A stretch of 64,000 bases of DNA from Candidatus Methanofastidiosum methylothiophilum (GTDB taxonomy: Archaea; Methanobacteriota_B; Thermococci; Methanofastidiosales; Methanofastidiosaceae), in NCBI GenBank assembly GCA_001587575.1, contig LNJC01000001.1, positions 47,864 through 111,863 on the forward strand, given 5' to 3'. The notes under the pieces were generated by a model. It had not been told where the DNA came from. It did not search any database and was given only the letters and a program-made list of their open reading frames with translations. Below are positions 2,888 to 35,018 of the stretch, one piece after another; position 1 is the stretch's first letter; the number at the start of each line of letters is the position of its first letter. Position numbers and translations under genes: made by a program.

Positions 2888-4197
2888 AATTTCCTATGGG
2901 TAAAAGGCTTTGCGTTCTTACCTACATAGTCTGCTACCTTGTGGCCACTTCCTATTAATTTATACTTATAGATTAGCATCCCTTCCATGCCTGTTGGACC
3001 TCTTGCATGAATCTTTCCTGTGCTAATTCCTATCTCTGCACCCTTTCCATATCTAAATCCATCGGCAAATCTTGTTGAGGCATTTAGCATAACTGATGAT
3101 GAATCAACAAAGTTTAAGAAATACTCCCCGGCCTTTTTATCCTCAGTTAGAATCACATCAGTATGGTGGGAGCCGTATTTATTTATATGCTCTACAGCAT
3201 CTTCAAGAGAGGTAACGACTTTGATTGATATTATAAGGTCATTATATTCTGTTGACCAGTCCTTTTCCTTTGCCTTTTTTACTTTGAAATCTTTTAAAAT
3301 CTCAAAGCTTTGTGGGCAGCATCTGATTTCTACACCAGCTTCTTTGTACATCTTTGCTATTTTTGGTAGGAACTTCTTTGCTGATTTTTCATGGACTAGT
3401 AGAGTTTCAATAGCATTGCATACTGCAGGGTACTGAACCTTTGCATCAAAGCACACGTCAAGGGCCTTTTTTTCATCGTATTTCTTGTCAACATAAGCAT
3501 GGCATATACCGTCTGCATGGCCCAATACTGGGATTTTTGTGTTTGACTGAACAAATCTCACAAAATCATTTGAGCCTCTTGGGATAATCAGATCAATGTA
3601 TTTATCGAGCTTTAACATCTCTGTTACGTCTTCCCTTCTTTCAAGTAGCTGGAAGGCTTCCTTTGGAATTGATTTGTTTTTAATTGAGCCAGTTAGGACT
3701 TCATAAATTGCTCTGTTTGTATTTGCTGCTTCCCTTCCGCCTTTTAATAGGACGCCATTACCACTTTTAAGAGCTAGAGAAATTATCTGTGGAACTACAT
3801 CAGGCCTTGATTCAAAGACCATTCCGATTACTCCAATAGGCGTTGCAACTTGGTATAACTCTAGGCCAGAGTCAAGTTCAATAGCGCTAAGAGTTTTTCC
3901 AACTGGGTCTTCTAGCTTTGCCACATCTTTTATGCCAGTTATCATTTCGTCAATCTTTGAATTTGTGACCTCAAGCCTTTTTACTAGAGACTCTGTAAGC
4001 TCTCCTTTTTGGAGAAGTTTTTTTGCTTCAACGATGTCTTTATTATTCGCCTCTAAAATCTTCTTTCTATTATTATCAAGGGCCTTTGCCATAAGGAGCA
4101 AAGCATCATTCTTATCCTTTGTCTTGGCATTTGATAACTTTATGAAAGCTTCCTTTGCCATAATGGCCTTATCCTTAACACTTTCCATAAACTTCAC
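2884..4197 (-). CDS. proA: Gamma-glutamyl phosphate reductase
   Basis: A 437-aa aldehyde dehydrogenase-like protein with the catalytic Cys region (PAVCNAIETLLVHE). It sits between proB and proC and overlaps both. Confidence 0.85.
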   Translation of the reverse strand: MKFMESVKDKAIMAKEAFIKLSNAKTKDKNDALLLMAKALDNNRKKILEANNKDIVEAKKLLQKGELTESLVKRLEVTNSKIDEMITGIKDVAKLEDPVGKTLSAIELDSGLELYQVATPIGVIGMVFESRPDVVPQIISLALKSGNGVLLKGGREAANTNRAIYEVLTGSIKNKSIPKEAFQLLERREDVTEMLKLDKYIDLIIPRGSNDFVRFVQSNTKIPVLGHADGICHAYVDKKYDEKKALDVCFDAKVQYPAVCNAIETLLVHEKSAKKFLPKIAKMYKEAGVEIRCCPQSFEILKDFKVKKAKEKDWSTEYNDLIISIKVVTSLEDAVEHINKYGSHHTDVILTEDKKAGEYFLNFVDSSSVMLNASTRFADGFRYGKGAEIGISTGKIHARGPTGMEGMLIYKYKLIGSGHKVADYVGKNAKPFTHRKL

Positions 4198-4996
4198 CCA
4201 ACTCCTTTGACCTTTCAGTAGCCTTTTTTACAGCTTCTATTACTCCCTTCTCAAAGGAATGTTTTTCTAGCTCTATTAACCCCTTTTCAGTTGTGCCACC
4301 TGGAGTCTTCACCATGTTGATCAATTCATCAAACGCTTTCCCAGTTTTATCGGCCATCAAAACTGCGCCGTAAAGAGTATCTAAAGCAAGTTTTTTCGAT
4401 GTTTCTTCTGGCAGGCCTGCTTTGATGCCCCCTAAAGTCAAAGCCTTTAGGAATGAGAACACATAAGCTGGGCCAGAGCCTGAGAGTCCAGTTACCGCAT
4501 CCATCTTTTCTTCATCGACCTTAATAACAGTACCAAGATTATCAAAGACTTTTTTGAAATCCTCTTCATTTTCTTTAGTTACATACCTACCTATCGAATA
4601 ACAAGAAGGGGAGAATCCTATTGAGAGCGAAATGTTCGGCATGACACGAATAACTGGCGTTTCTTTAGTCATTTCCTCTATAAACTTTATTGGAACGCCT
4701 GCGGCAACTGAAACAATGAGCTTTTCTTTTAGATTTAAATCTTTGATACTATCCATTACAGGCGCAATTAAATTTGGCTTTACAGCAAGTATTATTATTT
4801 TAGAAGATGAAAAAACATCTCTGTTATTTGTTGATACCTCTATCCCGTATTCGGATTTTATAGGATTTAGAATGTTTTCTGACACATCGCTTAGTATAAT
4901 ATCTTGTTTACTAAACGCCTTTTTCTCTAGCAATCCTTTTACTATCCCGCTACCTATTTTTCCGGCGCCTACAACTCCTATTTTATACATATTCAT
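4175..4996 (-). CDS. proC: Pyrroline-5-carboxylate reductase
   Basis: The N-terminus has a Rossmann motif (KIGVVGAGKIGSGI), and the 273-aa length matches P5CR. It heads the proC-proA-proB operon on the minus strand. Confidence 0.8.
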   Translation of the reverse strand: MNMYKIGVVGAGKIGSGIVKGLLEKKAFSKQDIILSDVSENILNPIKSEYGIEVSTNNRDVFSSSKIIILAVKPNLIAPVMDSIKDLNLKEKLIVSVAAGVPIKFIEEMTKETPVIRVMPNISLSIGFSPSCYSIGRYVTKENEEDFKKVFDNLGTVIKVDEEKMDAVTGLSGSGPAYVFSFLKALTLGGIKAGLPEETSKKLALDTLYGAVLMADKTGKAFDELINMVKTPGGTTEKGLIELEKHSFEKGVIEAVKKATERSKELGEVYGKC

Positions 4997-5065
4997 TTTT
5001 CTATATTTTAATCATTTAAAACTTTACGTTGAAAACTTTATAAACAGAATTTTCTCTTCTAATAT

Positions 5066-5887
5066 ATGATTGAAGCTACTTTTTATTTGGAATCACAGAG
5101 CAACTCTAAAGAGGCTCTTGAGCTCTCTGTTAGGAAACTGTTAGAGGAGGTCAAGGGCTTAAACAATGTAAAGATATCTAGGGAGTTGTTCCATGAGATA
5201 TTGGAAGACGAGGATGAGATGGGGAGGATATTCTATTCCTCTGTCCTTGAAGTTGACATAAAGACTGAGTTTAGAGAGTACATCACGCTTTGCATGAGGC
5301 TTGTGCCATCGACAATTGAGATAATAAAGGGGGATGTAAAGATCAAAGGTAAAGAACTTCTCGAAGTATTTGGTGACGTTTCTTCAACAGTGAATAAGCT
5401 ATGCAAAAAATACAATCTGACCCTTTATAGGGTAGGCGAGGGAGAAGGATTGAAGCAGAGTAAGATTGGTTTGGAAGAGGAAGAGATTGAAGAAGCAGTT
5501 GAGCAAGGTGGGGCTCTATTCAAGTTTGTCGTTGAAGCAAGGGCAAAGAATGAGAAGTTTGCCATGGAGAAGACAAAGGAGCTTGTAAATGATACAGGCG
5601 GAATGATACACAAGATGCTTGCAAAAAAGGTCGGCGAAGGAGAAGCTTGGGAAGGTGTAGTTGGCATGGAAGTGCTATTCTTTGATATTGAGACCTTGTT
5701 TGATGCAGTGATCAAATTTTCTCCTGTTGCAATGAGCTTCATAGAGCCAGAGGTTGTACATTTGAACATGGCAGAGCTCCAGAATATTGGAATTGACATA
5801 GCAGGGATTATACAGCAGCTTACATTTGATGTTATTACAAGAGGCATGAGAGGTGGCCAAGGAAGCTTTAGGGCGACTCAAGCCTAA
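5066..5887 (+). CDS. Hypothetical acidic cytoplasmic protein of 273 aa
   Basis: The ORF is clean with consistent codon usage and has no recognisable motif. It lies directly upstream of the S-layer gene pair. Confidence 0.45.
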   Translation: MIEATFYLESQSNSKEALELSVRKLLEEVKGLNNVKISRELFHEILEDEDEMGRIFYSSVLEVDIKTEFREYITLCMRLVPSTIEIIKGDVKIKGKELLEVFGDVSSTVNKLCKKYNLTLYRVGEGEGLKQSKIGLEEEEIEEAVEQGGALFKFVVEARAKNEKFAMEKTKELVNDTGGMIHKMLAKKVGEGEAWEGVVGMEVLFFDIETLFDAVIKFSPVAMSFIEPEVVHLNMAELQNIGIDIAGIIQQLTFDVITRGMRGGQGSFRATQA

Positions 5888-5908
5888 AAATTTTTATCCT
5901 TTTCTTAA

Positions 5909-5925
5909 ACAAAAGATTTATAAAC
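5909..5925 (+). promoter_or_regulatory. Putative BRE/TATA promoter of S-layer gene A (AAAAGATTTATAAAC)
   Basis: It is an A-rich BRE-like element plus TTTATAAA located about 70 nt upstream of the ATG at 5995. The same CAAAAGATTTATA(A/T)AC element recurs upstream of the second S-layer gene. Confidence 0.5.
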
Positions 5926-5994
5926 AACCCAATTCAATAGATTATTGTACCCTTCTAGAGAAATTAAAATAAAACCTATTAAAGGTGAAAATAT

Positions 5995-8373
5995 ATGAAA
6001 TTAAGAACAATTGGAGCAGTCCTCGCAGGGGCTGCAATGATTGGAGCTACTGTAGCAGGCGCTGCCGCTGCAGCAACAGTTCCAGGAAAAGCTTGGTTTA
6101 TTGACCCAGCAACGGGCACACCAAACGTAACAATAGTCGTTGGAGCACAAGCCAACGCATCCGATGTAGTTTCTGCATCTTTGATTGCAGCAGCAGTCGG
6201 TAACATGGCAACTGTCGAGCAGACAGCATCCGTACCAACAACTGCTTCAGCAACATGGGATAAGATTGGAGACTACAATTACACATATGTTCCAACTACA
6301 ACGACATACAATGCTACATGTGCAGACAGACCTGCTACATGGTACACAGACTATGGTCTACTATCTACTAGATACTGGGAAACATCTGAAGATGACTACC
6401 CCTCAGAGAATGCAGCAGCAGGCGGATACAGGACATACGTCCAGATTGCAACACCCTCAGAAATAAGGCATGGAACAGGCGGAGCCCAAGTCACAAAGGG
6501 ACTTAGCACCCTATGGTTCTCAAACTCAGCAAAAGACTGGGATGCAAATGACAGGATATACAAGCTTGCACCACAATCTGGAGCAGGCACAGGCTCATAC
6601 TGGCTTGTGAACAATGCAGTAACAGGATCACCAACTGCACTTATAACCAGAACTTTACCAAACTACGCTGGAGGAAGCTATGACGATGGAGACGGCCAGT
6701 GGGACCTTGACTACGCATTCTACACAACATTGGCATGGGTAAATGTAACTGACCCAGCCCCAAGACCTGCAGCACCAACAGTAGGCCAATACAGCAAAAC
6801 AGTCGACTGTGACTACGATTTCGGTGGAACAGGTACCGGAATGGAAGCACACGAAGAAATTCAGTTCATATTAACAAGCGATGACTGTGCAGGATGCGCA
6901 GCCACCGGATTACCCTTATTCAAGGGAGACAAGGGCGTCGTATCAGGTATAGTATACAGAACAACTGAAATCAGATACCCATTGTTAGAAAACGGCCAGA
7001 ACATCTGTGGAATCCAGAAGTGCTGGGGTATGGTTGACTTTGAAACTGCAAGAACAGGCAGATTCACACCAATCAAATTCCTCGGTAAGATGTACCAGCC
7101 AATGTTTGCAGGTGCAACATGGTATGAGACACCTGGATACCTTGGTGCATACTTCATGTACGGTAAGCCATACGCAGAGAAAGAAAAGATCATGAAGGTA
7201 GGGGACGTCTACAACTACCACGGATGGACTGTTACATTAAACGATGTAAACATATACGAAAACAAGGCATACATAACAGTTGCCGGTCCAACATTAACTG
7301 CACCATTTAACTTCATAATGGTCATGGACTCACTAGGCGACTGTGGACCATGCTGTCCAGACTGTGCAATATACGGTGGAAAGGGAGCTTTCACATCCAA
7401 CCCAACAAGAAGAAACGAATACGACCCATACGTTAACTACACAACTGTAACAAAGACAAAGGACGACTACGCATACAACTTCTTCAGATATGTAAACTTC
7501 ATGCTCGACGGTATCAAGACATTCGTCGGCGCAGACGGTACATACCTTGCAGAATTCAACTTGTACGCAATCGAAGACTTCGGATACTTAGAAGACAAGG
7601 GATGCTGTGACCCATTCGTCACAACACCAAACGACTACGGTCTTGCAATAACTGGTGGATGGAGAAAAGTTACAACAGTAATGGAAGAAACCACACCTCT
7701 TAAGAAAGCAGCAACTGTTGTTGGCCCATGGGAACTTAACGGTACAAGCGCTACTGATCCATTCGAGTACATCCAGTGGATGCCAGCCCCAGTATGCAAC
7801 GCATACTGCCCAGATGCAAACTTCGACACACTTGAATTAAGACTTTGCGACACAATAAAGGTACCAGACTGTGAAACATCATACACAGTCAACGGTCCAG
7901 AAAACTACTTCAAGATAGAATTACTTGACGTAGACTTTGGAACATACAACACCGACTTAACTATGTTCGATGAATACCTTACAAGAGAAGTATACGTAGG
8001 CAAATACACAAAGGCAGCACCAAATGACAAAGACGGTCTAAGAGCAAGACTCTCAATGACCACAGCAGGCCAGACAATAAAATACACAGCAAACGTCAAG
8101 ATCGACCCAGTTGAGCTCATAAAGCTTGACATAGAAGTCAACACTGCCACAAACAAGAAGAACTTAGTTCTTGTCGGCGGTCCAGTATACAACAGCATCG
8201 TAAAGGACTTAGTTGACATGGGAGCATCCACTGTCGACTGGGCAACATCCAGGGGAGAATGGGAATGGATAGCAGACCCAATGGCCAAAGGATACGATGT
8301 CTTAATAGTAGCTGGTGCCAACAGAGAAGAAACAAGAATGGCAGCAGAAGACTTAGTCAGAATGTTGAACTAA
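5995..8373 (+). CDS. S-layer (surface layer) protein, paralog A; secreted and cysteine-rich
   Basis: It has an N-terminal signal peptide (MKLRTIGAVLAGAAMIGATVAGAAAAA). This is followed by the motif VVGAQANASDVVSASLIAAAVGNMA, which resembles the Methanococcales S_layer_N domain. The C-terminus (NLVLVGGPVYNSIVKDLVDMGA...VLIVAGANREETRMAAEDLV) resembles S_layer_C. A strong RBS (AGGTGAAAA) precedes the start. Confidence 0.7.
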   Translation: MKLRTIGAVLAGAAMIGATVAGAAAAATVPGKAWFIDPATGTPNVTIVVGAQANASDVVSASLIAAAVGNMATVEQTASVPTTASATWDKIGDYNYTYVPTTTTYNATCADRPATWYTDYGLLSTRYWETSEDDYPSENAAAGGYRTYVQIATPSEIRHGTGGAQVTKGLSTLWFSNSAKDWDANDRIYKLAPQSGAGTGSYWLVNNAVTGSPTALITRTLPNYAGGSYDDGDGQWDLDYAFYTTLAWVNVTDPAPRPAAPTVGQYSKTVDCDYDFGGTGTGMEAHEEIQFILTSDDCAGCAATGLPLFKGDKGVVSGIVYRTTEIRYPLLENGQNICGIQKCWGMVDFETARTGRFTPIKFLGKMYQPMFAGATWYETPGYLGAYFMYGKPYAEKEKIMKVGDVYNYHGWTVTLNDVNIYENKAYITVAGPTLTAPFNFIMVMDSLGDCGPCCPDCAIYGGKGAFTSNPTRRNEYDPYVNYTTVTKTKDDYAYNFFRYVNFMLDGIKTFVGADGTYLAEFNLYAIEDFGYLEDKGCCDPFVTTPNDYGLAITGGWRKVTTVMEETTPLKKAATVVGPWELNGTSATDPFEYIQWMPAPVCNAYCPDANFDTLELRLCDTIKVPDCETSYTVNGPENYFKIELLDVDFGTYNTDLTMFDEYLTREVYVGKYTKAAPNDKDGLRARLSMTTAGQTIKYTANVKIDPVELIKLDIEVNTATNKKNLVLVGGPVYNSIVKDLVDMGASTVDWATSRGEWEWIADPMAKGYDVLIVAGANREETRMAAEDLVRMLN

Positions 8374-8684: not shown

Positions 8685-11147
8685 ATGAGAATAAAAATGT
8701 TAGGGGCTGCTTTAACGGGAGCCCTAATGTTAGGAGCAACATTAGCAGGAGCAGCATCAGCCGCAACAGTTCCGCCAAAAAGCTTTTTCATCGATCCACT
8801 TACAGGAGCACCTGATGTCGTCATTGCCGTTGGCGCAACAGCAAATGCATCAGACGTAGTCTCCGCATCACTTATTGCAGCAGCAGTAGGCAACATGGCA
8901 ACCGTAGAAGAAACAAGGACTGTTACAAGAACAGCAAGTGCCACTTTTGACTATATGATGGACTACAACTATACATACGACAGGTCTAGTAAGAATATAG
9001 AATACTACAATTCAACCTGTACTGATACAGCAGCATGGGCAAAGTGGTACACAGACTATGAACTGTTTTCCACACAGTTCTGGGAAACTGCATCAGGCGA
9101 CGGAATTAAAGGAGATAAAGATGTTAAAGACTATGATATTTCAGTTGCAATAGCAATGCCAAAGGAAATAAGAAATCCAGATGGATATGTAGTTGCAAGA
9201 GAATTGAACACACTATGGTTTTCAAACTCTCCAAAAGATTGGGATTCAAACAACAGAATCTACTACCTTAAACCACAATCTGGAGCAGGTACAGGATTAT
9301 ACTATCTTGTAAATACAAAGGTAACAGCAGCTGAAGTAGGAGCAGTATCTCCAACAGCAAACATAGTCAAAACTTTACCTGCATACGCAGGCGGAAGCTA
9401 TGACAATGGAAATGGATCATGGGATTTTAATTACGTTACAGGAGAGTATGCTTTCTTTTCAACAAAAGCTTGGGTAAATGTAACTGATCAAACAACAACC
9501 GCTACCTACGCACCAAAAGCTGACTGTGACTATGTCTTCGGTGGAACAGGTACAGAAATGGAGCCTCATGAGGAAATCCAGATCATTCTCGCAGACATCG
9601 AAACAACACCAGACGGTTTGGTAGATATGAGAGGAGACAGAGGTTCTGCATCTGGTATAATATACAGAACAGCAGAAATCAGATACCCCTTGTTAGAAAA
9701 CGGCCAGAACATCTGTGGAATAAGTAACTGCGACGGTATGGTAGACTTTGAAACTGCAAGAACAGGCAGATTCACACCAATCAAATTCCTCGGTAAGATG
9801 TACCAGCCAATGTTTGCAGGTGCAACATACAACTCTGAAGGGGGATACCTTGGTGCATACTTCACATACGGTAAGCCATACGCTGAGAAAGAAAAAATCA
9901 TGAAGGTAGGAGACTCTTATAACTTCCACGGATGGACTATAAATCTATCCGACGTAAACATCTATGAAAACAAAGCTTTCATAACAGTTTCTGGACCAGA
10001 TCTAGCTTCTCCATTTAGCTTCATAATGGTCATGGACTCTCTTGGCGACTGTGGCCCATGCTGTCCAGACTGTGCAATATACGGTGGGGGAGGAGCATTT
10101 ACATCCAACCCAACAAGAAGAAACGAATACGACCCATACAGAGTCAAAATAACAAAGACAAAGGAAGTAGATGGCAGAACATATAATCTATTTAACTATG
10201 TACCTTTCATGCTCGATGGTATAAAGACATTCGTCGGTGCAGACGGTACATACCTTGCAGAATTCAACATCTACGCAGTTGAAGATTTCGGATGGTTTGA
10301 AGACAAGGGATGCTGTGACCCATTCGTCACAACGCCAAATGACTACGGTCTAGCAATAACTGGCGGATGGAGAAAAGTTGCATACAACGCAACTACACAA
10401 GACGTATCAGGATGGTTCTCTTGGGAAGATGGCATTGCAGCGGGAGACAGAAATGTATCTCAAGCATACATCCTATGGCAACCAGCACCAAGATGCAACA
10501 CACCATGTCCAGATGCAAACTTTGATACATTGGAACTCCAGCTTTGTGATAACATTGACATACCTGATTGTGAAACTGCATTTACCGTCAACGGTCCAGA
10601 GAACTACTTCTCTGTAGTAATACAGGATGTAGACTTTGGAAAGAAAAACAAAACATTGAATTTCGATACAATTGACCTATTGAATGCTCAAACTCCATAT
10701 GATCAACTACTTGGATACTATGAGACTACACCAATAACTCCAGAAACAATATTATTAGGAGTCTATGCAGGCAGAGCAAACAGCGACTCAGCAGACGTAG
10801 ATGGTGCAAAGATAATGATATCTCAGACAACAGTTGACACAGCTCAGTCGATCACTTACACAAAGAGTGTAAACATTGACCCAATTGAGCTAATAAAGCT
10901 TGATATCGAAATCAACACTGCATCACTTCAAAAGAACTTAGTTCTTGTCGGTGGACCAGTATACAACAGCATTGTTAGAGACCTTGGAAATATGGGTGCA
11001 TCAACAGTTAATTGGGCCGCATCACCTGGTGAGTGGGAATGGATAGCAGACCCATTCGGCAGAGGATATGATGTCCTTATAGTAGCCGGTGCCAACAGAG
11101 AAGAAACAAGGCTCGCTGCTCAGCAGTTAGTATCTCAATTGAGATAA
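8685..11147 (+). CDS. S-layer protein, paralog B
   Basis: It has the same architecture as paralog A: a signal peptide (MRIKMLGAALTGALMLGATLAGAASAA) and conserved N- and C-terminal S-layer domains. Internal blocks (for example 9661-9900 and 10011-10330) are nearly nucleotide-identical to gene A. Confidence 0.7.
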   Translation: MRIKMLGAALTGALMLGATLAGAASAATVPPKSFFIDPLTGAPDVVIAVGATANASDVVSASLIAAAVGNMATVEETRTVTRTASATFDYMMDYNYTYDRSSKNIEYYNSTCTDTAAWAKWYTDYELFSTQFWETASGDGIKGDKDVKDYDISVAIAMPKEIRNPDGYVVARELNTLWFSNSPKDWDSNNRIYYLKPQSGAGTGLYYLVNTKVTAAEVGAVSPTANIVKTLPAYAGGSYDNGNGSWDFNYVTGEYAFFSTKAWVNVTDQTTTATYAPKADCDYVFGGTGTEMEPHEEIQIILADIETTPDGLVDMRGDRGSASGIIYRTAEIRYPLLENGQNICGISNCDGMVDFETARTGRFTPIKFLGKMYQPMFAGATYNSEGGYLGAYFTYGKPYAEKEKIMKVGDSYNFHGWTINLSDVNIYENKAFITVSGPDLASPFSFIMVMDSLGDCGPCCPDCAIYGGGGAFTSNPTRRNEYDPYRVKITKTKEVDGRTYNLFNYVPFMLDGIKTFVGADGTYLAEFNIYAVEDFGWFEDKGCCDPFVTTPNDYGLAITGGWRKVAYNATTQDVSGWFSWEDGIAAGDRNVSQAYILWQPAPRCNTPCPDANFDTLELQLCDNIDIPDCETAFTVNGPENYFSVVIQDVDFGKKNKTLNFDTIDLLNAQTPYDQLLGYYETTPITPETILLGVYAGRANSDSADVDGAKIMISQTTVDTAQSITYTKSVNIDPIELIKLDIEINTASLQKNLVLVGGPVYNSIVRDLGNMGASTVNWAASPGEWEWIADPFGRGYDVLIVAGANREETRLAAQQLVSQLR

Positions 11148-15112: not shown

Positions 15113-15745
15113 ATGGTGGCCTTGACCTTCTTCGTATATGCATTGACCTCTATATTCGTCATTGTAAATCCAGTAGGTGCAATGTTTACATTCATGTCAC
15201 TAACTGCCGATAAAGATAACAAGGAACGGATAAGGCTTGGCACAAGGTCTGTTTTAATTGGATGCTTACTTGCAGTAATATTTGCTATTAGCGGTGAAAT
15301 AATTTTAAGATTCTTTGGGGTCACTGTTGATAGCTTGAGAGTTGCAGGAGGAATTATTCTATTTAAAGTAGCATTGGACATGGTTTATGCAAAAACTTCA
15401 AGAGAAAGCTTTACTGAAGAAGAAAGAAAAGATGCTAAAGACAGAGATGATATATCAGTCTTTCCGGTGGCAATGCCCCTACTTACTGGGCCTGGAACGA
15501 TTACAACTGTAATTGTGGTAATAAGGTCAGTTCCTACAGTTGAGCTTAAGATGGTCGCAATACTTGCAATTCTTGTAACATTTGCAATCACATTCTTGAT
15601 GTTTAGGTTTTCAACTCCACTTAGTAAAATACTTGGTGTAACAGTGACTCTCGTATTTACCCGTATAATGGGATTACTACTTGGTGCAATAGCAATTAAC
15701 TTCCTTGCAACAGGGATTAAGAATATCTTTCTAGCAATGTTATAA
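15113..15745 (+). CDS. MarC family (UPF0056) integral membrane protein
   Basis: It has a six-TM pattern and the MarC-type N-terminus ALTSIFVIVNPVGAMFTF. Confidence 0.65.
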   Translation: MVALTFFVYALTSIFVIVNPVGAMFTFMSLTADKDNKERIRLGTRSVLIGCLLAVIFAISGEIILRFFGVTVDSLRVAGGIILFKVALDMVYAKTSRESFTEEERKDAKDRDDISVFPVAMPLLTGPGTITTVIVVIRSVPTVELKMVAILAILVTFAITFLMFRFSTPLSKILGVTVTLVFTRIMGLLLGAIAINFLATGIKNIFLAML

Positions 15746-15759
15746 AAAAAGAAAAACAG

Positions 15760-16075
15760 TTTGTCGCCTCACCTATGTTTTGTCTAGAGTATTATCCGAA
15801 TGTTTCGACGTCTCGAAACGGTCTCTCCAAGGTTTCAAGAGAAACATAAAAATGTTTCTTCCAAACTCCTCCAAACTTACGTTTGATTAAGGATTTCGAC
15901 CATACTCGGGAAACTTCCTTTCTCCAGATGCTACAATATATCCGTAATAAGAGTAAACTCCTTCTACGAACAATATCTCAGCGTCTGAAATCAGGAATAT
16001 ACTTCGACATTAACACAAGTGAAGTTTCGACCTGTGGTAATTATAGTAAAAATTTTATAACTACTTAAATTTTAC
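15760..16075. ncRNA. Candidate structured non-coding RNA or regulatory region; class and strand undetermined
   Basis: The 434-bp gap between the MarC gene and the next CDS has no credible ORF, yet its base composition is coding-like rather than that of an AT-rich spacer. It contains hairpins GTTTCGA-CGTC-TCGAAAC (15802-15819) and GAAACAT-AAAA-ATGTTTC (15841-15858). It also contains four copies of (T/C)TTCGAC. Confidence 0.3.
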
Positions 16076-16179
16076 TATTATTGATTATTTAGAATTAGAA
16101 AAAATATTTTTAAAATATGCCCTATCCTAAATCTGTAACGTTGACAGTATTTAATCATTAAGATAAAAAGTAACTATTT

Positions 16180-17085
16180 TTAGAAGTCTCTTATTAGATA
16201 CTCTGCAATACCGTAACCTTTCTTCCCATTCATTTCATATTCAGTTAGAGTTTCATGCATGATCGATTGTTTCTTTCCATCGCCGCTTGTAAATGGCAGC
16301 TTTACATTTTTTATTATCTTTGCCTTGACTTTGTGCACATCGCCTTTTTTGTCAAATAGCTCCATATCAAAAGAATTTGGGCTTCCATCTTGATTGTATT
16401 GGGTATTTATTGTAGCCTTGATTATTGGTAAGTTCTCTCCGCCCAAGTGGACAAAACCTGCATCAACTTCACCTTCAGAAACTGTAAGTTTTGTGACGTT
16501 TAGCGCCACCTCTTCAGAGAACTGGCATGTCAACCATATCCACATCTTTGGCGCATTCCAGTCTCTAACGCCCCACGAGTGGTCCCTTTCTCCCAATCCA
16601 GATATACTGTATTCTTTTTGACCTATCTTTAGTTTACCTACGGCTTTACCAAACTGCTCTAGGTGCTCAGAGGCAACCGATTGCGATATCTTTTCTTTAA
16701 ACCCACTTACACATTCTCTATAATCAAAGATTTTGTTAAGTGATTCAAATTCAAAGTTGAAAGAAACATCAACTGGCTTTTTACTGGAAAAATCAAATAA
16801 ATTTCCGTCAAATGTTAAATTCCATCTTTTCTCTGGCTCTATTTTATTAAAAGTCATGTTTTTTGCTGATAACAAGTCACCATCATATTTGTCGTCTTCT
16901 TTAAGGCCTATGTAAGAGCCATCAGGAAGCATAAAAAAACAGAACATATTTTTTAGAGGTTTATTAGGTTTAAGACCAATTCTCATAAAAGAGCATATGT
17001 CATTTGTCTTGTCATAGAAACTAAAGTAAAAACTCTCGTTCCATTCAACGTTATCCTTCTTTGGATGCACAACATCTGTATCCAT
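16180..17085 (-). CDS. Hypothetical beta-rich protein, possibly CrtC/AttH-like lipocalin-fold hydratase family; translationally coupled to the upstream phosphotransferase
   Basis: A 301-aa protein whose N-terminus (VHPKKDNVEWNESFYFSFYD) and internal motif (GERDHSWGVRDWN) recall the HP..EWWY and DH.W motifs of CrtC/AttH proteins. This is assigned from memory and is unverified. Its start codon overlaps the stop of the 876-aa gene by 1 nt. Confidence 0.5.
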   Translation of the reverse strand: MDTDVVHPKKDNVEWNESFYFSFYDKTNDICSFMRIGLKPNKPLKNMFCFFMLPDGSYIGLKEDDKYDGDLLSAKNMTFNKIEPEKRWNLTFDGNLFDFSSKKPVDVSFNFEFESLNKIFDYRECVSGFKEKISQSVASEHLEQFGKAVGKLKIGQKEYSISGLGERDHSWGVRDWNAPKMWIWLTCQFSEEVALNVTKLTVSEGEVDAGFVHLGGENLPIIKATINTQYNQDGSPNSFDMELFDKKGDVHKVKAKIIKNVKLPFTSGDGKKQSIMHETLTEYEMNGKKGYGIAEYLIRDF

Positions 17086-19715
17086 TAAGATTCCTCCACC
17101 AAGTAAATTATTCCCTCGTTTCCATCGATCTTAACCTTTTGACCGTTCTTGAAGATTTTTGTCGCGTTACTTACAGCTGTTACCGCAGGGATACCATACT
17201 CTCTTGATACAACTGCACCGTGGGACAGTATCCCTCCTGTTTCAGTTATTAGTCCCCCTATCTTAGAAAATACTGGGGTCCAGCCTGGGTCTGTATTAGA
17301 AGTTACTAAAATCTCATCATCTTTTACCTTGGGCAACTCTCTTATCGATTCGACTACCCTAATAATGCCAGTTGCAATTCCCGGGCTTGATGAAGTCCCA
17401 GTGACTTTAACTAGATTATCCTCTACCTCTATACTATCGTCAAATTCCACGTTACCTTTCAAGAACTTTGGCGGCAGAATATTCTTATACTTTTCAAACT
17501 CTTCTTTGCGTTTCTCAACTGTTTCCTTGTCAATTACGAGGTCTCCTTTAGAAATATCAAATATCTCCTCCTTAGAAAAGAAGAATATGTCCATCTGCGA
17601 ATCGATAATCCCTCTTTCTAAAAACCTCCTGCCGTATTCCATGAAGAGTCTCCTCTCTCTTGTTAGTTCGTGGTCAAGATAGAATCTTTGGTTCTCTCTG
17701 AAAATAAGATATCTCTGTGCATAGTCTAAGACCTTGGCAAATATGGGCTTTTTAATAAATCCGTTCTTTGTCTTTGAAACAGCATTAATTATCTCTACTT
17801 CTGCCTTTTGTCTCTCTTCCCTTTTTCTCTTTTCGACTTCTTCTAAATCAACTTCATTTGAATCGATAAGGCTTTTTAGAACTTCAGTTACAAGTGAAGG
17901 GTCATCTATCCATCTTGGATAGTAGATTTCTCTAGTGTGTGAGCGGTGACCGTAGTCGCTCATAAACTCATTGAACTTATACGAAAATTCTTTTAATTCC
18001 TCGTCCTTATCAAGACGGTCTAAAAACTCAGAAGAGGGAAGTTTCTTAATCAACTCAGTTACTTTTTTATTTTTCTTCGCTTCTTTTGCAAGTTTTGCCA
18101 TCTCTATATTTGTTACAATAGTTTTGTTATCAGGGAGGCCTGTGATTAGTTTAGAATATAGTACTCCAGATTTATCACCGAGCCAATCAGTTAGCCACCT
18201 TTTTAAAATAAGATTTGAACCTATGCTATGGGTAACCATCCCATATCTAATAAGCCTGTTGTGCTTTAGGAACTTTGCTCTTAATTTGACAAACTCTTCA
18301 TGTAATTCTTCATCATTTAAATTCTTTAGATCAATCTTGTCAAACTCTTTTATGTAGGATAAATAGTCATTTGCCCACTTTAGATAGGCTTTATCAGTAG
18401 TCGTTATTTTGCCATCAGGATCCATTATAGCAACTCTTACTTCAGCAAGAAGTCTCTTGAAGAGCTTTGCATCGGCATTTGCAATCCTCTCCTGCTCACT
18501 CTTTGGGAAGTAGTTAAGTAACTCTTTTGTTCTGCCAACTTTGGGATTATATGTAAATACATCCTCAAGTGCTTGTGCATTAAAGTATACGTGGCCTTTA
18601 TGTAATCTTAAGAGGTCCTTGTCCTTTAGCTCCTTGTAACCCATTATTTTAGCCCCTTCTTTGAATACATAATTCGATAGATTCTCACCAAGAAGAGAGA
18701 AGAAGAGAGGGGACGTTACATCAGCCCAGTATTCGTCAGAGTACCCCCTAGTCCAGAGGGTCTGGTCTTTTTCAATGGTGGTAATGCCCCTCGACTGCAA
18801 GATAAATATGCCTTCTTCTGAAGCTGCCCACTCAACATCTTGTGGCGATTTGAAATAAGCCTCAATCTTTTCCCCTAAATTTGATAAATAAATTATCTCT
18901 TCATCAGTTAAGGAGGGAAGCAGTTTCTTTGAACTTTCAATTTCCGAAGAAACACTTCCTTTATCAGAAAGATATATCCCCTTTGTCTTATTACTTATTT
19001 TTCTTTCAATAATCTCTTTAGATTTTTTTTCTAAAGTGAATCTATCTGGGCTTACAATACCTGAAACTATAGACTCTCCAAGGCCCCAGCTTGATTCAAT
19101 TACTATCTTGTCCTTATCTCCTGTTATTGGGTCAGCAGTGAACATGACACCCGCAGCCTTTGCATTTACCATGCTCTGAACTATAACAGCCATGCCACCT
19201 TCAAGATGAGAAATATTGTTATTGTGTCTGTAACTTATTGCCCTTTCGTTCCAGTAAGACGCCCAACAAAGTTTTACATGTTCAATAACATCTTTTGTTT
19301 TAATATTTAGAAAAGAGTCCTGTTGACCTGCAAAGGAAGCCTCTGCAAGGTCCTCTGCTAGAGCAGATGAACGCACTGCCCAAAGCTCTATTTTTTTATT
19401 TTTTGAAAGTATCTTTTCTATTTCATTTGATATTGATTTATCTATTGCCCCTGACAAAATTAGACCCTGAATATTTTTTGAAGTGCCGACAACGCTTTTT
19501 TTATAGTCATACTTCACTGTTTTTAGAAGCTCGGATATTTTTTCCTTGAAATTGTTATCATTAATAAATTTCTCGTAAGCTTCGGTTGTAACAACAAATC
19601 CATAAGGCACTTCAAATCCTTCTTTTTTTAATAAAGATAAATTCAATGCTTTGTTTCCAACTGAACTAGAATTGCTTTTTTTGACATCAGAAAAAGACAG
19701 TACGACATCTGACAT
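17085..19715 (-). CDS. PEP-utilizing-enzyme-family phosphotransferase with rifampin-phosphotransferase-like domain order; annotated in databases as PEP synthase-like but it lacks the PEP/pyruvate TIM-barrel domain
   Basis: An 876-aa protein whose N-terminus is a PPDK_N / ATP-grasp domain (VGNKALNLS, AVRSSALAEDLAEASFAGQQDSF, VIVQSMVNAKAAGVMFTADPITGD). The central ~450 aa are unassigned. The C-terminus is a PEP-utilizers mobile domain with a candidate phospho-His (GGILSHGAVVSREYGIPAVTAV). Confidence 0.7.
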   Translation of the reverse strand: MSDVVLSFSDVKKSNSSSVGNKALNLSLLKKEGFEVPYGFVVTTEAYEKFINDNNFKEKISELLKTVKYDYKKSVVGTSKNIQGLILSGAIDKSISNEIEKILSKNKKIELWAVRSSALAEDLAEASFAGQQDSFLNIKTKDVIEHVKLCWASYWNERAISYRHNNNISHLEGGMAVIVQSMVNAKAAGVMFTADPITGDKDKIVIESSWGLGESIVSGIVSPDRFTLEKKSKEIIERKISNKTKGIYLSDKGSVSSEIESSKKLLPSLTDEEIIYLSNLGEKIEAYFKSPQDVEWAASEEGIFILQSRGITTIEKDQTLWTRGYSDEYWADVTSPLFFSLLGENLSNYVFKEGAKIMGYKELKDKDLLRLHKGHVYFNAQALEDVFTYNPKVGRTKELLNYFPKSEQERIANADAKLFKRLLAEVRVAIMDPDGKITTTDKAYLKWANDYLSYIKEFDKIDLKNLNDEELHEEFVKLRAKFLKHNRLIRYGMVTHSIGSNLILKRWLTDWLGDKSGVLYSKLITGLPDNKTIVTNIEMAKLAKEAKKNKKVTELIKKLPSSEFLDRLDKDEELKEFSYKFNEFMSDYGHRSHTREIYYPRWIDDPSLVTEVLKSLIDSNEVDLEEVEKRKREERQKAEVEIINAVSKTKNGFIKKPIFAKVLDYAQRYLIFRENQRFYLDHELTRERRLFMEYGRRFLERGIIDSQMDIFFFSKEEIFDISKGDLVIDKETVEKRKEEFEKYKNILPPKFLKGNVEFDDSIEVEDNLVKVTGTSSSPGIATGIIRVVESIRELPKVKDDEILVTSNTDPGWTPVFSKIGGLITETGGILSHGAVVSREYGIPAVTAVSNATKIFKNGQKVKIDGNEGIIYLVEES

Positions 19716-19853
19716 AAAATCCCTTCTTTTTTTTAGTCATTTTGTTATTATATTTATAAAACTTTGTTTTTCCTAAATTTTTGCTTATTTCTATTAATTA
19801 TATTTATATTTTATTTCCATTAAAAATAAATAACTGGTTTCTTTATCTAGGCC

Positions 19854-21137: not shown

Positions 21138-22418
21138 ATGGAAATTAGAGAATTTATCGCTCATGAAAAAGACATTATCAAAATTGATAGAGAGTTAGAG
21201 AAATATGAGATGGCAAAGATAATTCATGAGAATCCAACTAAAATATTACAGTTTAAAGATAAAGGCTACGATGTTTTTTGTAATATATGGTCTACTAGAG
21301 ATCGTGTTGCAAAATATCTGAAATTGGACAAATCAAAGCTCCTTTTTTCTTTGAAAGAAGCCATGGATAAACCAACACCTTACAAAATCGTCGATAAAAG
21401 TCCATTCATTGAAAACGAGGTTAAAAATTTTGATCTTAGAAAAATTCCAATTCAATACCATTACCCACAAGATGGCGGACCCTATGTTACGTCAGGTGTT
21501 GTTTTTGTAAAAGATGAAAAGGGCAACAGAAACATGTCCTTTCATAGAATGATGGTAACAGGAAAGGACACTTTTACAATAAGAATAGTCCCAAGACATC
21601 TCTTTGCAATGTATAACGAAGCAAAGGCAAAGAACAAGGATTTAGAAATCGTTTTGGTCATAGGACTTCCCCCTTACGTGCTTTTACCTGCTGCAATGTC
21701 TATATCTTATGGTATAAATGAACTTGAGATTGCAAATACATTAAAGAAAATGGGACTGGGCAATGAACTTACTGCATATAGATTTGAAAATGGAATCGAT
21801 GTTCCAACTTCTTCTCAATTTGTTTTTTGTGGAAGGATAACTCTTGAAGAAGGAGATGAAGGCCCATTTGTAGACATAACTGGGACTTATGACTTTGTAA
21901 GAAAACAGCCCGTAGTAAAGATAGACAAGGTCTACCAAGCAAAAAATGCATTTTTCCATGCACTCATGCCAGGAGGATATGAGCACTTCCTTTTGATGGG
22001 GATGCCAAGAGAGCCAATCATCTATGAGGGCGTATCAAAAGTTGTTCCAAAGGTATATGGCGTTAGATTGACAGAAGGCGGGGATTGCTGGCTTCATGGA
22101 GTTGTATCGATTAAAAAGCAGAAAGAAGGTGATGGAAAGAACGCTATAATGGCTGCACTCGCATCACATCCTTCAATGAAGAGAGTTGTTATTGTAGATG
22201 AGGACATAGATATCTATTCAGACACAGATGTAGAATGGGCAATTGCAACTAGATTTCAGGCCGATAAAGATTTATTAGTTGTGACAAACGCCGCAGGCTC
22301 AAGTCTTGATCCTTCAGTTAAAGGTGATGGCACCACAGCAAAGATGGGAATTGATGCAACAATGCCCTTAAAGAATAATGAAGGATATAAAAGAGCAATA
22401 AATTTCCTTAAAAAATAA
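21138..22418 (+). CDS. UbiD-family (prenyl-FMN-dependent) decarboxylase, possibly the anhydromevalonate-phosphate decarboxylase type
   Basis: A 426-aa protein with UbiD-like N-terminal and central regions. The specific substrate cannot be assigned from the sequence. Confidence 0.55.
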   Translation: MEIREFIAHEKDIIKIDRELEKYEMAKIIHENPTKILQFKDKGYDVFCNIWSTRDRVAKYLKLDKSKLLFSLKEAMDKPTPYKIVDKSPFIENEVKNFDLRKIPIQYHYPQDGGPYVTSGVVFVKDEKGNRNMSFHRMMVTGKDTFTIRIVPRHLFAMYNEAKAKNKDLEIVLVIGLPPYVLLPAAMSISYGINELEIANTLKKMGLGNELTAYRFENGIDVPTSSQFVFCGRITLEEGDEGPFVDITGTYDFVRKQPVVKIDKVYQAKNAFFHALMPGGYEHFLLMGMPREPIIYEGVSKVVPKVYGVRLTEGGDCWLHGVVSIKKQKEGDGKNAIMAALASHPSMKRVVIVDEDIDIYSDTDVEWAIATRFQADKDLLVVTNAAGSSLDPSVKGDGTTAKMGIDATMPLKNNEGYKRAINFLKK

Positions 22419-34378: not shown

Positions 34379-35018
34379 CGAATCTAGGAATAAAATGGTT
34401 TCTTATCTTGAAAAATTTGGCTACATTAAAAGTGAACATGTAAAAGAGGCCTTCTTGAAAGTTGACAGAAGTAATTTCATTCCTGGAAATCTAAAAGAAG
34501 AGGCTTACAGAGATACTCCACTTTCAATCGGTTCTGGGCAGACTATCTCTGCACCTTCAATGATTGCGTTGATGTTAGAAGTTTCAGAACTTAAATTTGG
34601 GCTCAAAATATTAGAGATAGGAACAGGATCTGGCTATAATGCTGCATTGATTGCTGAAATATGTGGAGATCAAAACATTGTTACAATTGAAAGAATACCT
34701 GAAGTATATCAATTCGGTAGGGAGAATCTCAAAAAGGCTGGATACAATGTGAAGGTAGTTCTTGGGGATGGCACAAAAGGATACCTAGAAGATGCACCAT
34801 ACGATAGGATAATCGTGACTGCAGCAGCCCCACAAGTTCCACAAAGTTGGAAAGATCAGTTGAAAGAAGATGGCATGATAATAGCTCCTGTGGGGATGGA
34901 AAGATACTATCAGGAACTTCTGGTAGTAAAAAAGAAAAATGACACAACATTTGACATAAAGAAGCATGGCGGGTGCGTTTTTGTGCCCTTAGTCGGAGAG
35001 GATGGGTGGAAGGAGTAA
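34365..35018 (+). CDS. pcm: Protein-L-isoaspartate O-methyltransferase
   Basis: It carries the motifs GSGQTISAPSMIA and LEIGTGSGYNAA. The ATG at 34365 is preceded by GGAAGGAG, and the upstream ORF-track extension from 34263 is rejected. Confidence 0.85.
   Translation: MSINDESRNKMVSYLEKFGYIKSEHVKEAFLKVDRSNFIPGNLKEEAYRDTPLSIGSGQTISAPSMIALMLEVSELKFGLKILEIGTGSGYNAALIAEICGDQNIVTIERIPEVYQFGRENLKKAGYNVKVVLGDGTKGYLEDAPYDRIIVTAAAPQVPQSWKDQLKEDGMIIAPVGMERYYQELLVVKKKNDTTFDIKKHGGCVFVPLVGEDGWKE

Follow-up and report, generated by a model that had tools for sequence, protein, structure and literature searches.

A conserved kinase–lyase gene pair in Methanofastidiosum and other anaerobic archaea as a candidate two-step ATP-dependent dehydratase

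The analysed window is a 64,000-nucleotide stretch of a Candidatus Methanofastidiosum methylothiophilum contig (LNJC01000001.1), and all coordinates are window positions. It contains two overlapping minus-strand genes, whose features, domains and flanking signals are as follows:

17085..19715, minus strand: gene of an RPH-type dikinase, 876 amino acids (aa) (open reading frame, Pfam, PDB match, Foldseek)
18762..19667, minus strand: ATP-grasp nucleotide-binding domain of the kinase, aa 17–318 (PF01326, PPDK_N, E 9e-95)
17436..18758, minus strand: central all-helical substrate-binding domain of the kinase, aa ~320–760, homologous to the RIF-binding domain (phmmer alignment, AF2 model)
17112..17324, minus strand: phospho-histidine swivel domain of the kinase, aa 798–868 (PF00391, PEP-utilizers mobile domain, E 9e-24)
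16180..17085, minus strand: gene of a DUF7065+DUF7064 protein, 301 aa, a predicted phosphoester lyase (25-phosphosteroid-lyase family, AttH-like fold)
16558..16593, minus strand: signature motif GERDHSWGVRDW, aa 165–176 of the lyase-like protein, where its two barrels meet (invariant columns, alignment A3)
17083..17097, minus strand: kinase/lyase coupling junction (read from sequence)
19716..19760, minus strand: putative promoter and leader of the kinase gene (inferred from sequence)
16161..16179, minus strand: T-rich tract CTTTTTATCTT directly past the lyase stop codon (read from sequence)

The initial annotation placed the start of the 301-aa frame on the last base of the upstream stop, and this is what the sequence contains: the two frames overlap by 1 base in TAATG, with the kinase stop codon TAA at 17087..17085 and the lyase ATG at 17085..17083. 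GGAGG lies 7 nt 5′ of this ATG (17097..17093). A TATA-like TTTATAAATA at 19760..19751 is a putative promoter element of the kinase gene, and GAAGGG at 19727..19722, before the kinase ATG, is a putative ribosome-binding site. The T-rich tract CTTTTTATCTT is a possible archaeal oligo-T terminator and would close the bicistronic operon; the next gene after the lyase gene, marC (15113..15745), is on the opposite strand. The operon contains no resistance, transporter, or regulator genes, and a PADLOC search returned no matches.

The 876-aa protein is an RPH-type dikinase composed of an ATP-grasp domain, a helical central domain, and a C-terminal swivel domain. Its closest PDB match is the Listeria rifampin phosphotransferase RPH-Lm (5fbs/5hv1, E 2.6e-115), and Foldseek matches it to 5hv1 over the full length (E 3.9e-49). 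The phmmer alignment with RPH-Lm spans kinase residues 3–314 and 503–872 (the latter aligned to RPH-Lm 496–865); residues 315–502 of the substrate domain gave no phmmer alignment to RPH-Lm, and the AF2 model is helical over residues 336–743. His832 (codon CAC, 17220..17222), within GGILSHGAVV, aligns with RPH-Lm His825. K22, R115, and S134 correspond to RPH-Lm Lys22, Arg117, and Thr136, and T532, R673, E674, and R677 align with Thr523, Arg666, Glu667, and Lys670. Among these, K22, R115, T532, R673, E674, R677, and H832 are invariant across 36 kinase homologues (alignment A2), and their counterparts in RPH-Lm are catalytic, as judged by mutagenesis or structure (PMC4844700). The archaeal kinase thus shares with RPH-Lm the domain order, the catalytic histidine, and the phosphoryl-transfer residues of both active sites (5fbs, 5hv1; PMC4844700), but overall identity is only 25–27%, and the NCBIfam equivalog cut-offs for rifamycin-inactivating phosphotransferases (NF041857 / NF000283) are missed (480.5 bits versus 999; 334 bits versus 1700). 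Another difference is that RPH works alone and its phosphorylated product is the end point, whereas the archaeal kinase has a dedicated downstream lyase attached to it. The precomputed family PF27448 is present in the kinase homologues.

The initial annotation had recognized the RPH-like arrangement and concluded that the protein is not a PEP synthase; both points stand. The PEP/pyruvate TIM barrel (PF02896, PEP-utilizers_C) finds no Pfam match in the 876-aa protein even at E ≤ 1, and the helical middle region of the AF2 model likewise gives no sign of a cryptic barrel. The histidine domain is C-terminal, not central. The TIGR01418 (PEP synthase) score is 403 versus a cut-off of 739.75, and in Foldseek PEPS and PPDK resemble the protein only through the ATP-grasp and histidine domains (TM ≤ 0.33). 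PEP synthase identity is ruled out by domain architecture. The same ATP-grasp and swivel-histidine scaffold serves non-pyruvate substrates in PigC/RedH/HapC, the two-component kinase HpeHI, and MarK; the 876-aa protein scores far under the cut-offs of these families, and the titles and abstracts found describe no DUF7064/7065 partner for them.

The 301-aa protein matches PF23213 (68.4 bits, cut-off 27) and PF23212 (66 bits, cut-off 24.7) in the expected order; this DUF7065+DUF7064 pair is also that of 25-phosphosteroid lyase (25-PSL). A 32-member profile of the 301-aa family matched only 25-PSL structures in the PDB (9fzn, 9g2i, and 9g4c; E 1.5e-12), of which 9g4c contains phosphate and the alkene product. 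The 25-PSL structure has been public only since January 2026. Foldseek, too, returned 25-PSL as the top match, and among fold relatives its identity is the highest (20% versus 11–12% for the others). The resemblance to CrtC/AttH suggested earlier holds at the level of fold, an AttH-like double β-barrel, but not at the level of family, since PF07143 and PF17186 do not match the protein at E ≤ 1. The motifs quoted in the initial annotation (GGILSHGAVV, HPKKDNVEWNESFYF, and GERDHSWGVRDW) are all present, and the last of them carries the likeness to 25-PSL: both proteins contain GxRDxSWGxR (GSRDRSWGVR in 25-PSL), and G165, R167, D168, S170, W171, G172, and R174 are common to bacterial 25-PSL-like proteins. 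In A3, a mixed alignment of archaeal and bacterial lyase-like proteins, the invariant residues are these seven together with Y20, F21, G37, P40, N41, F48, Q144, G146, and G150. Identity to 25-PSL is 17–20%, and the NCBIfam Rv3169 family cut-off (NF053593) is not reached (46.2 bits versus 150). The archaeal proteins form a separate subfamily, whose activity could differ from that of 25-PSL.

To estimate how consistently the genes are paired, we used the 80 best-matching archaeal loci with a homologue of the 301-aa protein in a species-representative genome collection. In 78 of them, the adjoining gene on the 5′ side encodes a kinase homologue in the same orientation; it is intact or cut solely by a contig end in 71 and a remnant in 7. 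The lyase gene stands alone in 2. Remnant and lyase-only loci may reflect occasional kinase-independent function of the lyase, assembly errors, or decaying copies. The distance from kinase stop to lyase start in related loci is −14 to +23 nt, mostly ≤7 nt, unless the genes are fused in frame, as in 5 of these 71 loci (1181–1187 aa). Fusions also make up 16 of the 120 best kinase homologues, with PF01326, PF27448, PF00391, PF23213, and PF23212 in a single chain. In the operon and in all fusions the kinase comes first (N-terminal) and the lyase second (C-terminal); in two distant relatives, the ATP-grasp domain is fused straight to the lyase. The module occurs in Methanofastidiosa, Methanomassiliicoccales and other Thermoplasmata, Methanomethylicia, Methanocella, and Conexivisphaerales. 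It spans three phyla of anaerobic archaea, among which identity is similar throughout at 50–60%. The genes around it differ from clade to clade; in Methanomassiliicoccales it occupies a stable position among housekeeping genes. The sequences of the module are unusually well conserved (mean column identity of 63–65% across phyla). The pairing is far beyond chance, and the two proteins are functionally linked. The initial annotation knew of no archaeal precedent for such a pairing, and we found none in the literature searched. Among six bacterial 25-PSL-like loci examined, only one, L081, had an adjacent kinase: an APH kinase gene separated by 3 nt from the 25-PSL-like gene that follows it, within a steroid side-chain cluster.

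Taken together, we propose, with a probability of about 55%, that the gene pair encodes a self-contained two-step ATP-dependent dehydratase that phosphorylates and then eliminates. By homology, the ATP-grasp domain would move the β-phosphate of ATP to His832 with release of AMP and Pi, and the swivel domain would ferry the phosphate to the central helical domain and onto the hydroxyl of a small molecule. The double-barrel protein, as a homologue of 25-PSL, would then bind the phosphoester and form a C=C bond as phosphate is expelled. Summed, the two steps would read R-OH + ATP + H2O → alkene + AMP + 2 Pi. Dehydration of a tertiary alcohol by a kinase followed by a lyase has a precedent (PMC7411048, PMC8449060). 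Tertiary phosphoesters match ATP in group-transfer potential (PMC8449060), and the kinase 25-HSK, which converts ATP to ADP, catalyzes a fully reversible reaction with a tertiary alcohol, with a Keq of 0.34 (PMC7411048, PMC8449060). A dikinase (ATP → AMP + Pi) would therefore be energetically sensible for phosphorylation of such alcohols. Translational coupling and, in some lineages, fusion would pass the labile, energy-rich phosphoester straight to the lyase.

The archaeal pair is best read, from sequence comparison, as a variant of the Sterolibacterium denitrificans 25-HSK/25-PSL system with a nonhomologous kinase. The two-step logic would be the same, a kinase making the phosphoester and a lyase making the alkene (PMC7411048, PMC8449060), and the lyases are homologous by Pfam pair, profile, Foldseek, and motif. 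In contrast, 25-HSK is an APH-like, ~40-kDa enzyme that works through a ternary complex and converts ATP to ADP (PMC8449060), whereas the archaeal kinase is a ~100-kDa RPH-type dikinase that, by analogy, would use a phospho-histidine intermediate and produce AMP and Pi. The genes are unlinked in Sterolibacterium (PMC8449060) but overlapping or fused in archaea. CrtC, kievitone hydratase, and the archaeal hydroxy-GDGT synthase Hgs (bioRxiv 10.1101/2025.10.20.683597) add water without ATP. The 301-aa protein lies outside the sequence families of these AttH-like hydratases, and its kinase partner points to an ATP-driven direction, the reverse of theirs.

The initial annotation had suggested the opposite order, in which a CrtC/AttH-type enzyme first hydrates an isoprenoid double bond and the new tertiary hydroxyl is then phosphorylated by the kinase, so that a phosphorylated lipid or isoprenoid is the end product. 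We know of no role for tertiary phosphoesters as stable end products, which counts against it. This order is probably reversed, because 25-PSL, the sole solved relative detectable by sequence, acts after a kinase, expels phosphate, and forms an alkene; a kinase-first order also fits the arrangement of the genes in the operon and of the domains in every fusion. Together with the unmatched CrtC/AttH families and a phosphoester group-transfer potential equal to ATP’s (PMC8449060), this makes hydration followed by phosphorylation quite improbable. An unlikely but somewhat better alternative is that the phosphoester acts as a leaving group, generating an electrophile that the double-barrel protein then cyclizes or uses to form an ether or C–C bond, as a terpene cyclase- or pericyclase-like enzyme or in analogy to PigC/RedH-type condensation. 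Pericyclases, however, are 9–13% identical to the 301-aa protein and give no HMM match, PigC and RedH scores are far under their cut-offs of 1300–1350, and the common sequence motif is shared with the lyase.

The same kinase–lyase chemistry could also inactivate a xenobiotic or antibiotic, such as an exogenous terpenoid alcohol, macrolide, or ansamycin-like compound, elimination making the inactivation irreversible. In favor of this role, the kinase family was founded on an antibiotic-resistance enzyme (PMC4844700). The self-contained module with flanks that differ between clades, the similar identity across three phyla, which suggests lateral spread, and the remnants and losses in several genomes agree with it as well. 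According to the initial annotation, however, rifamycin does not target the RNA polymerase of archaea, and the unusually high conservation, the stable site among housekeeping genes in Methanomassiliicoccales, and an operon lacking resistance, transporter, and regulator genes or PADLOC matches also speak against inactivation, which we regard as very improbable. That an ordinary PEP synthase gene adjoins an unrelated hypothetical gene by chance has a negligible probability: the shared ATP-grasp and histidine domains and the annotation of kinase homologues in the sources as phosphoenolpyruvate synthase or pyruvate, water dikinase would favor it, but it is opposed by the architecture and TIGR01418 score described above and by the conserved adjacency and fusion of the pair.

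To our knowledge, the anaerobic archaeal hosts are not steroid degraders. All characterized members of the lyase's fold superfamily work at or beside tertiary carbons of isoprenoid or polyketide chains. By analogy, the preferred phosphorylation–elimination reaction would most likely act on a lipophilic, isoprenoid-type molecule that bears a tertiary alcohol. Hydroxylated archaeal isoprenoid lipids are a speculative choice. There is a small chance that the pair is a dehydratase for tertiary hydroxyls of isoprenoid membrane lipids (hydroxy-GDGTs or hydroxyarchaeol), an ATP-dependent counterpart of Hgs.

So far, ATP-dependent dehydration by a kinase and a phosphate lyase has been demonstrated in a single setting, the breakdown of steroid side chains by anaerobic bacteria. 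Here, the lyase family is joined to an entirely different kinase, a swivelling RPH-type dikinase. The proposal offers a testable function for a DUF pair and for a widespread gene misannotated as PEP synthase, and, for enzymology, it suggests a dikinase as an answer to the thermodynamic problem of tertiary-alcohol phosphorylation. It also points to a dehydration reaction so far unrecognized in the metabolism of archaea, possibly that of isoprenoid lipids. Should the substrates prove to be hydroxylated membrane lipids, lipid hydroxylation would be enzymatically reversible in methanogen-related archaea, hydroxylated lipids being converted to unsaturated lipids and then re-reduced, which would bear on the reading of OH-GDGT-based temperature proxies.

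The two genes are arranged on the minus strand as follows:

17085..19715, minus strand: 876–amino acid (aa) ORF, first gene of the pair (referred to as the kinase)
16180..17085, minus strand: 301-aa ORF, second gene of the pair (referred to as the lyase)

As the initial annotation had noted, they overlap by one base: the last base of the kinase stop codon TAA (17087..17085) is the first base of the lyase ATG (17085..17083), and a GGAGG sequence is located 7 nt 5′ of this ATG. Judged from the sequence alone, the kinase gene is preceded by a putative TATA-like TTTATAAATA box and a putative GAAGGG ribosome-binding site, and a T-rich tract 3′ of the lyase gene is a putative terminator. The upstream neighbor, an nreA-like gene, is divergent from the pair, while the downstream neighbor, marC, is encoded on the other strand in convergent orientation. 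Given the one-base overlap, these putative signals, and the orientation of both neighbors, the pair is a stand-alone bicistronic operon with a predicted promoter and terminator. In the 435-nt gap between the lyase stop and marC (15746..16179), nothing matched Rfam at E ≤ 1, no ORF reached 80 aa, and the short ORFs (≤61 aa) were not convincing.

The 876-aa protein contains a PPDK_N adenosine triphosphate (ATP)–grasp domain at aa 17 to 318 (E = 9e-95) and a PEP-utilizers swivel domain at aa 798 to 868 (E = 9e-24) in Pfam. Its closest solved relative is the Listeria rifampin phosphotransferase (RPH-Lm; E = 2.6e-115, aligned over aa 3 to 314 and 503 to 872). In the AlphaFold2 model (pLDDT of 85), aa 336 to 743 are nearly all helical, and Foldseek matched this model to RPH-Lm over its full length (E = 3.9e-49, 909 columns); PEP synthase and PPDK matched through the shared end domains only. 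Eight RPH-Lm residues with described roles (PMC4844700) were mapped by alignment: Lys22, Arg117, Thr136, and Thr523 correspond to K22, R115, S134, and T532, and Arg666, Glu667, Lys670, and His825 to R673, E674, R677, and H832. Seven of the eight are invariant in 36 archaeal homologs, the exception being S134, which is mostly Thr in the homologs. Together, the domains, alignment, helical middle region, fold match, and conserved residues identify the protein as a predicted dikinase of the RPH type that retains both active sites. A genuine PEP synthase was rejected, in agreement with the initial annotation: the PEP/pyruvate TIM barrel, a cryptic version of which had been named there as a refuting finding, was absent by Pfam, AlphaFold2 model, and Foldseek; the His domain is C-terminal; and the protein scores under every NCBIfam cutoff, including those for PEP synthase, RPH, PigC, and RedH. 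The protein is not orthologous to the rifamycin-resistance enzyme, although it is predicted to work as RPH does.

The 301-aa protein consists of DUF7065 (aa 7 to 174) and DUF7064 (aa 176 to 297), and the literature search returned no paper naming either domain. In a phmmer search against the PDB, it weakly matched 25-phosphosteroid lyase (25-PSL), which was also the sole PDB protein matched by a profile of 32 archaeal homologs (E = 1.5e-12). According to PDB entry titles, the 25-PSL structures include a complex with phosphate and the alkene product (9g4c, desmost-1,4-diene-3-one). The AlphaFold2 model (pLDDT of 93) comprises two β-barrel/sandwich domains; Foldseek ranked 25-PSL first (E = 1.6e-14, TM of 0.70 to 0.74), followed by fungal Diels-Alderases, kievitone hydratase, and AttH. 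When the protein was aligned with bacterial 25-PSL–like proteins, 16 positions were invariant, including G165, R167, D168, S170, W171, G172, and R174 of the GERDHSWGVRDW motif. The CrtC/AttH assignment of the initial annotation was thus right at the superfamily level, as the barrels and Foldseek ranking indicate, but by sequence the protein belongs with the phosphate lyase: Pfam gave no CrtC/AttH match even at E ≤ 1, which rules out membership at the sequence level, the fold being common to both. Both kinase and lyase are soluble, and hydrophobic segments are absent.

The closest homologs are in Methanofastidiosum metagenome-assembled genomes (MAGs; 84 to 89% identity). Scanning a single genome from each GTDB species yielded 420 relatives of the 301-aa protein, and we analyzed the best 80 loci, scoring the kinase by tblastn. 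All 80 are archaeal, from Methanofastidiosa, Methanomassiliicoccales and other Thermoplasmata, Methanomethylicia, Methanocella, Conexivisphaerales, and others. The conservation of the pair as neighbors, a check proposed in the initial annotation, was borne out: at 71 of these 80 loci, a kinase gene that is intact or cut by a contig end only lies directly upstream on the same strand, 7 have only kinase remnants in this position, and 2 lack an upstream kinase. The distance from kinase stop to lyase start ranges from −14 to +23 nt and is mostly ≤7 nt. At five loci (L029, L038, L040, L063, and L071), one 1181- to 1187-aa ORF covers both proteins; independently, in a collection of 5.8 billion proteins, 16 of the 120 best kinase homologs are 1174- to 1228-aa chains with all five Pfam domains. 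The kinase is N-terminal and the lyase C-terminal in all fusions. Flanking genes are housekeeping genes kept within clades only, beyond which no conserved pathway neighbors of the pair were found. The conserved adjacency, short spacing, fusions, and unconserved flanks therefore make a strong genomic case that one and the same molecule is handled by both proteins in successive steps. Divergence of the kinase correlates with that of the lyase (Pearson r = 0.87), but this was set aside as independent evidence, since shared ancestry alone would produce it.

Several loci depart from the standard arrangement. The lyase is intact and the upstream kinase reduced to remnants at L002, L016, L018, L054, L064, L068, and L072, while L017 and L074 have a lyase without a kinase within 6 kb; the L074 lyase follows a 1052-aa secreted-protease–like ORF. 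These loci could reflect decay, misassembly, or a role that does not need the kinase. In a Methanomassiliicoccus MAG (L008, 7058..7963), a second 301-aa lyase paralog lies right downstream of a normal pair, with GERAHTQGIRDP in place of GERDHSWGVRDW and QNESFYF in place of WNESFYF; since its signature motif is degenerate, it may be a noncatalytic copy. In two distant relatives, the metagenome singletons P0380 (766 aa) and P0399 (801 aa), a PPDK_N ATP-grasp is joined straight to a full DUF7065/7064 domain, without the central and swivel-His domains; their ATP-grasp is 26% identical to that of the window kinase and has an altered nucleotide-site motif. P0503 (445 aa; His domain and lyase) was not treated as an architecture of its own because its contig is only 1.4 kb long and it is probably part of a complete fusion protein.

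In Sterolibacterium denitrificans, 25-hydroxysteroid kinase (25-HSK) converts a tertiary alcohol into its 25-phosphoester, from which 25-PSL expels phosphate, yielding an alkene (PMC7411048 and PMC8449060). By analogy, we infer what the two archaeal enzymes do, in which direction, and on what kind of substrate: the archaeal kinase would phosphorylate the substrate alcohol, and the lyase would then eliminate phosphate from the resulting ester, an ATP-driven dehydration rather than hydration followed by phosphorylation as initially proposed. A kinase-first sequence agrees with how the genes are arranged and with the N-to-C layout of all fusions. The archaeal lyase belongs to the same family as 25-PSL, but its identity to 25-PSL is low and it scores below the Rv3169-family cutoff; the archaeal kinase is not homologous to 25-HSK. 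The latter is an APH-like, ~40-kDa enzyme converting ATP to ADP in a fully reversible reaction (Keq of 0.34), since tertiary phosphoesters reach the group-transfer potential of ATP (PMC8449060). RPH-type dikinases convert ATP to AMP and Pi (PMC4844700), which would drive tertiary-alcohol phosphorylation to completion, and translational coupling or fusion would hand the labile ester directly to the lyase. The literature search found no description of an archaeal ATP-dependent dehydratase of this kinase-lyase kind.

Bacterial loci were searched with a 161-aa partial 25-PSL rebuilt from alignments, and matches were mostly short or fragmented gene calls. Kinase adjacency is no general rule for this branch, since a kinase adjoins the 25-PSL–like gene in one of the six neighborhoods examined (L081) and the L081 kinase had no tblastn match in L082 or L083. 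In L081, a bacterial MAG locus (3930..6097), the gene for an APH-family kinase stops 3 nt ahead of the 25-PSL–like gene, which is frameshifted in the assembly; the two lie within a cluster for degradation of steroid side chains (ChsH2-like, thiolases, acyl-CoA dehydrogenase, and enoyl-CoA hydratase). In the bacterial locus L085 (4001..6126), a sulfotransferase gene (PF00685) comes after the 25-PSL–like gene, which hints that in some relatives the leaving group may be a sulfate rather than a phosphate ester.

Apart from the pair, the window carries the genes of an ordinary archaeal chromosome (S-layer proteins, H+-PPase, proline and diphthamide genes, tRNA methyltransferase, HypF, GAPDH, and ribosomal protein S3Ae). 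An anti-phage defense reading was rejected, as PADLOC gave no matches. No lipid or isoprenoid pathway genes were found elsewhere in the window except a generic UbiD-family decarboxylase (21138..22418, plus strand; TIGR00148, 372 bits) two genes upstream of the pair, beyond the nreA-like gene. UbiD-type enzymes function in the archaeal mevalonate pathway; this neighborhood is common to only five related loci. Tandem S-layer–like paralogs (PF05124; 792 and 820 aa) lie at 5995..8373 and 8685..11147 on the plus strand. The first sits in the window’s top G+C 2-kb bin (0.459 at 6001 to 8000 versus ~0.35 typically), and the second spans bins of 0.38 to 0.39. A radical SAM protein gene (34973..36430, plus strand; PF04055 and Radical_SAM_N2) overlaps the end of a PCMT gene and is followed by a diphthamide synthesis gene; its TIGR03960 (B12-binding radical SAM) score of 170.6 bits is far under the 462.3 cutoff.

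As to the substrate, an exogenous terpenoid or antibiotic is possible, which would fit the star-like distribution of the pair (~50 to 60% identity across phyla) and the kinase remnants in several genomes. An endogenous lipid is the other candidate. The window gave no match to Ted, Hgs, or AttH in searches that used no Hgs query sequence, and the taxon distributions of the pair and of Hgs/Ted overlap only in part. Characterized members of the lyase’s fold all act on isoprenoid or polyketide chains. The AttH-like hydratase Hgs makes hydroxy-GDGTs, which bear tertiary alcohols; the same 2025 preprint reports that Ca. Methanofastidiosum has Hgs homologs and that Methanomassiliicoccus has the desaturase Ted (bioRxiv 10.1101/2025.10.20.683597). 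The substrates of the fold, the Hgs precedent, and the reported presence of Hgs homologs and Ted in these taxa make it an attractive hypothesis that the pair would serve as an ATP-driven reversal of lipid hydroxylation.
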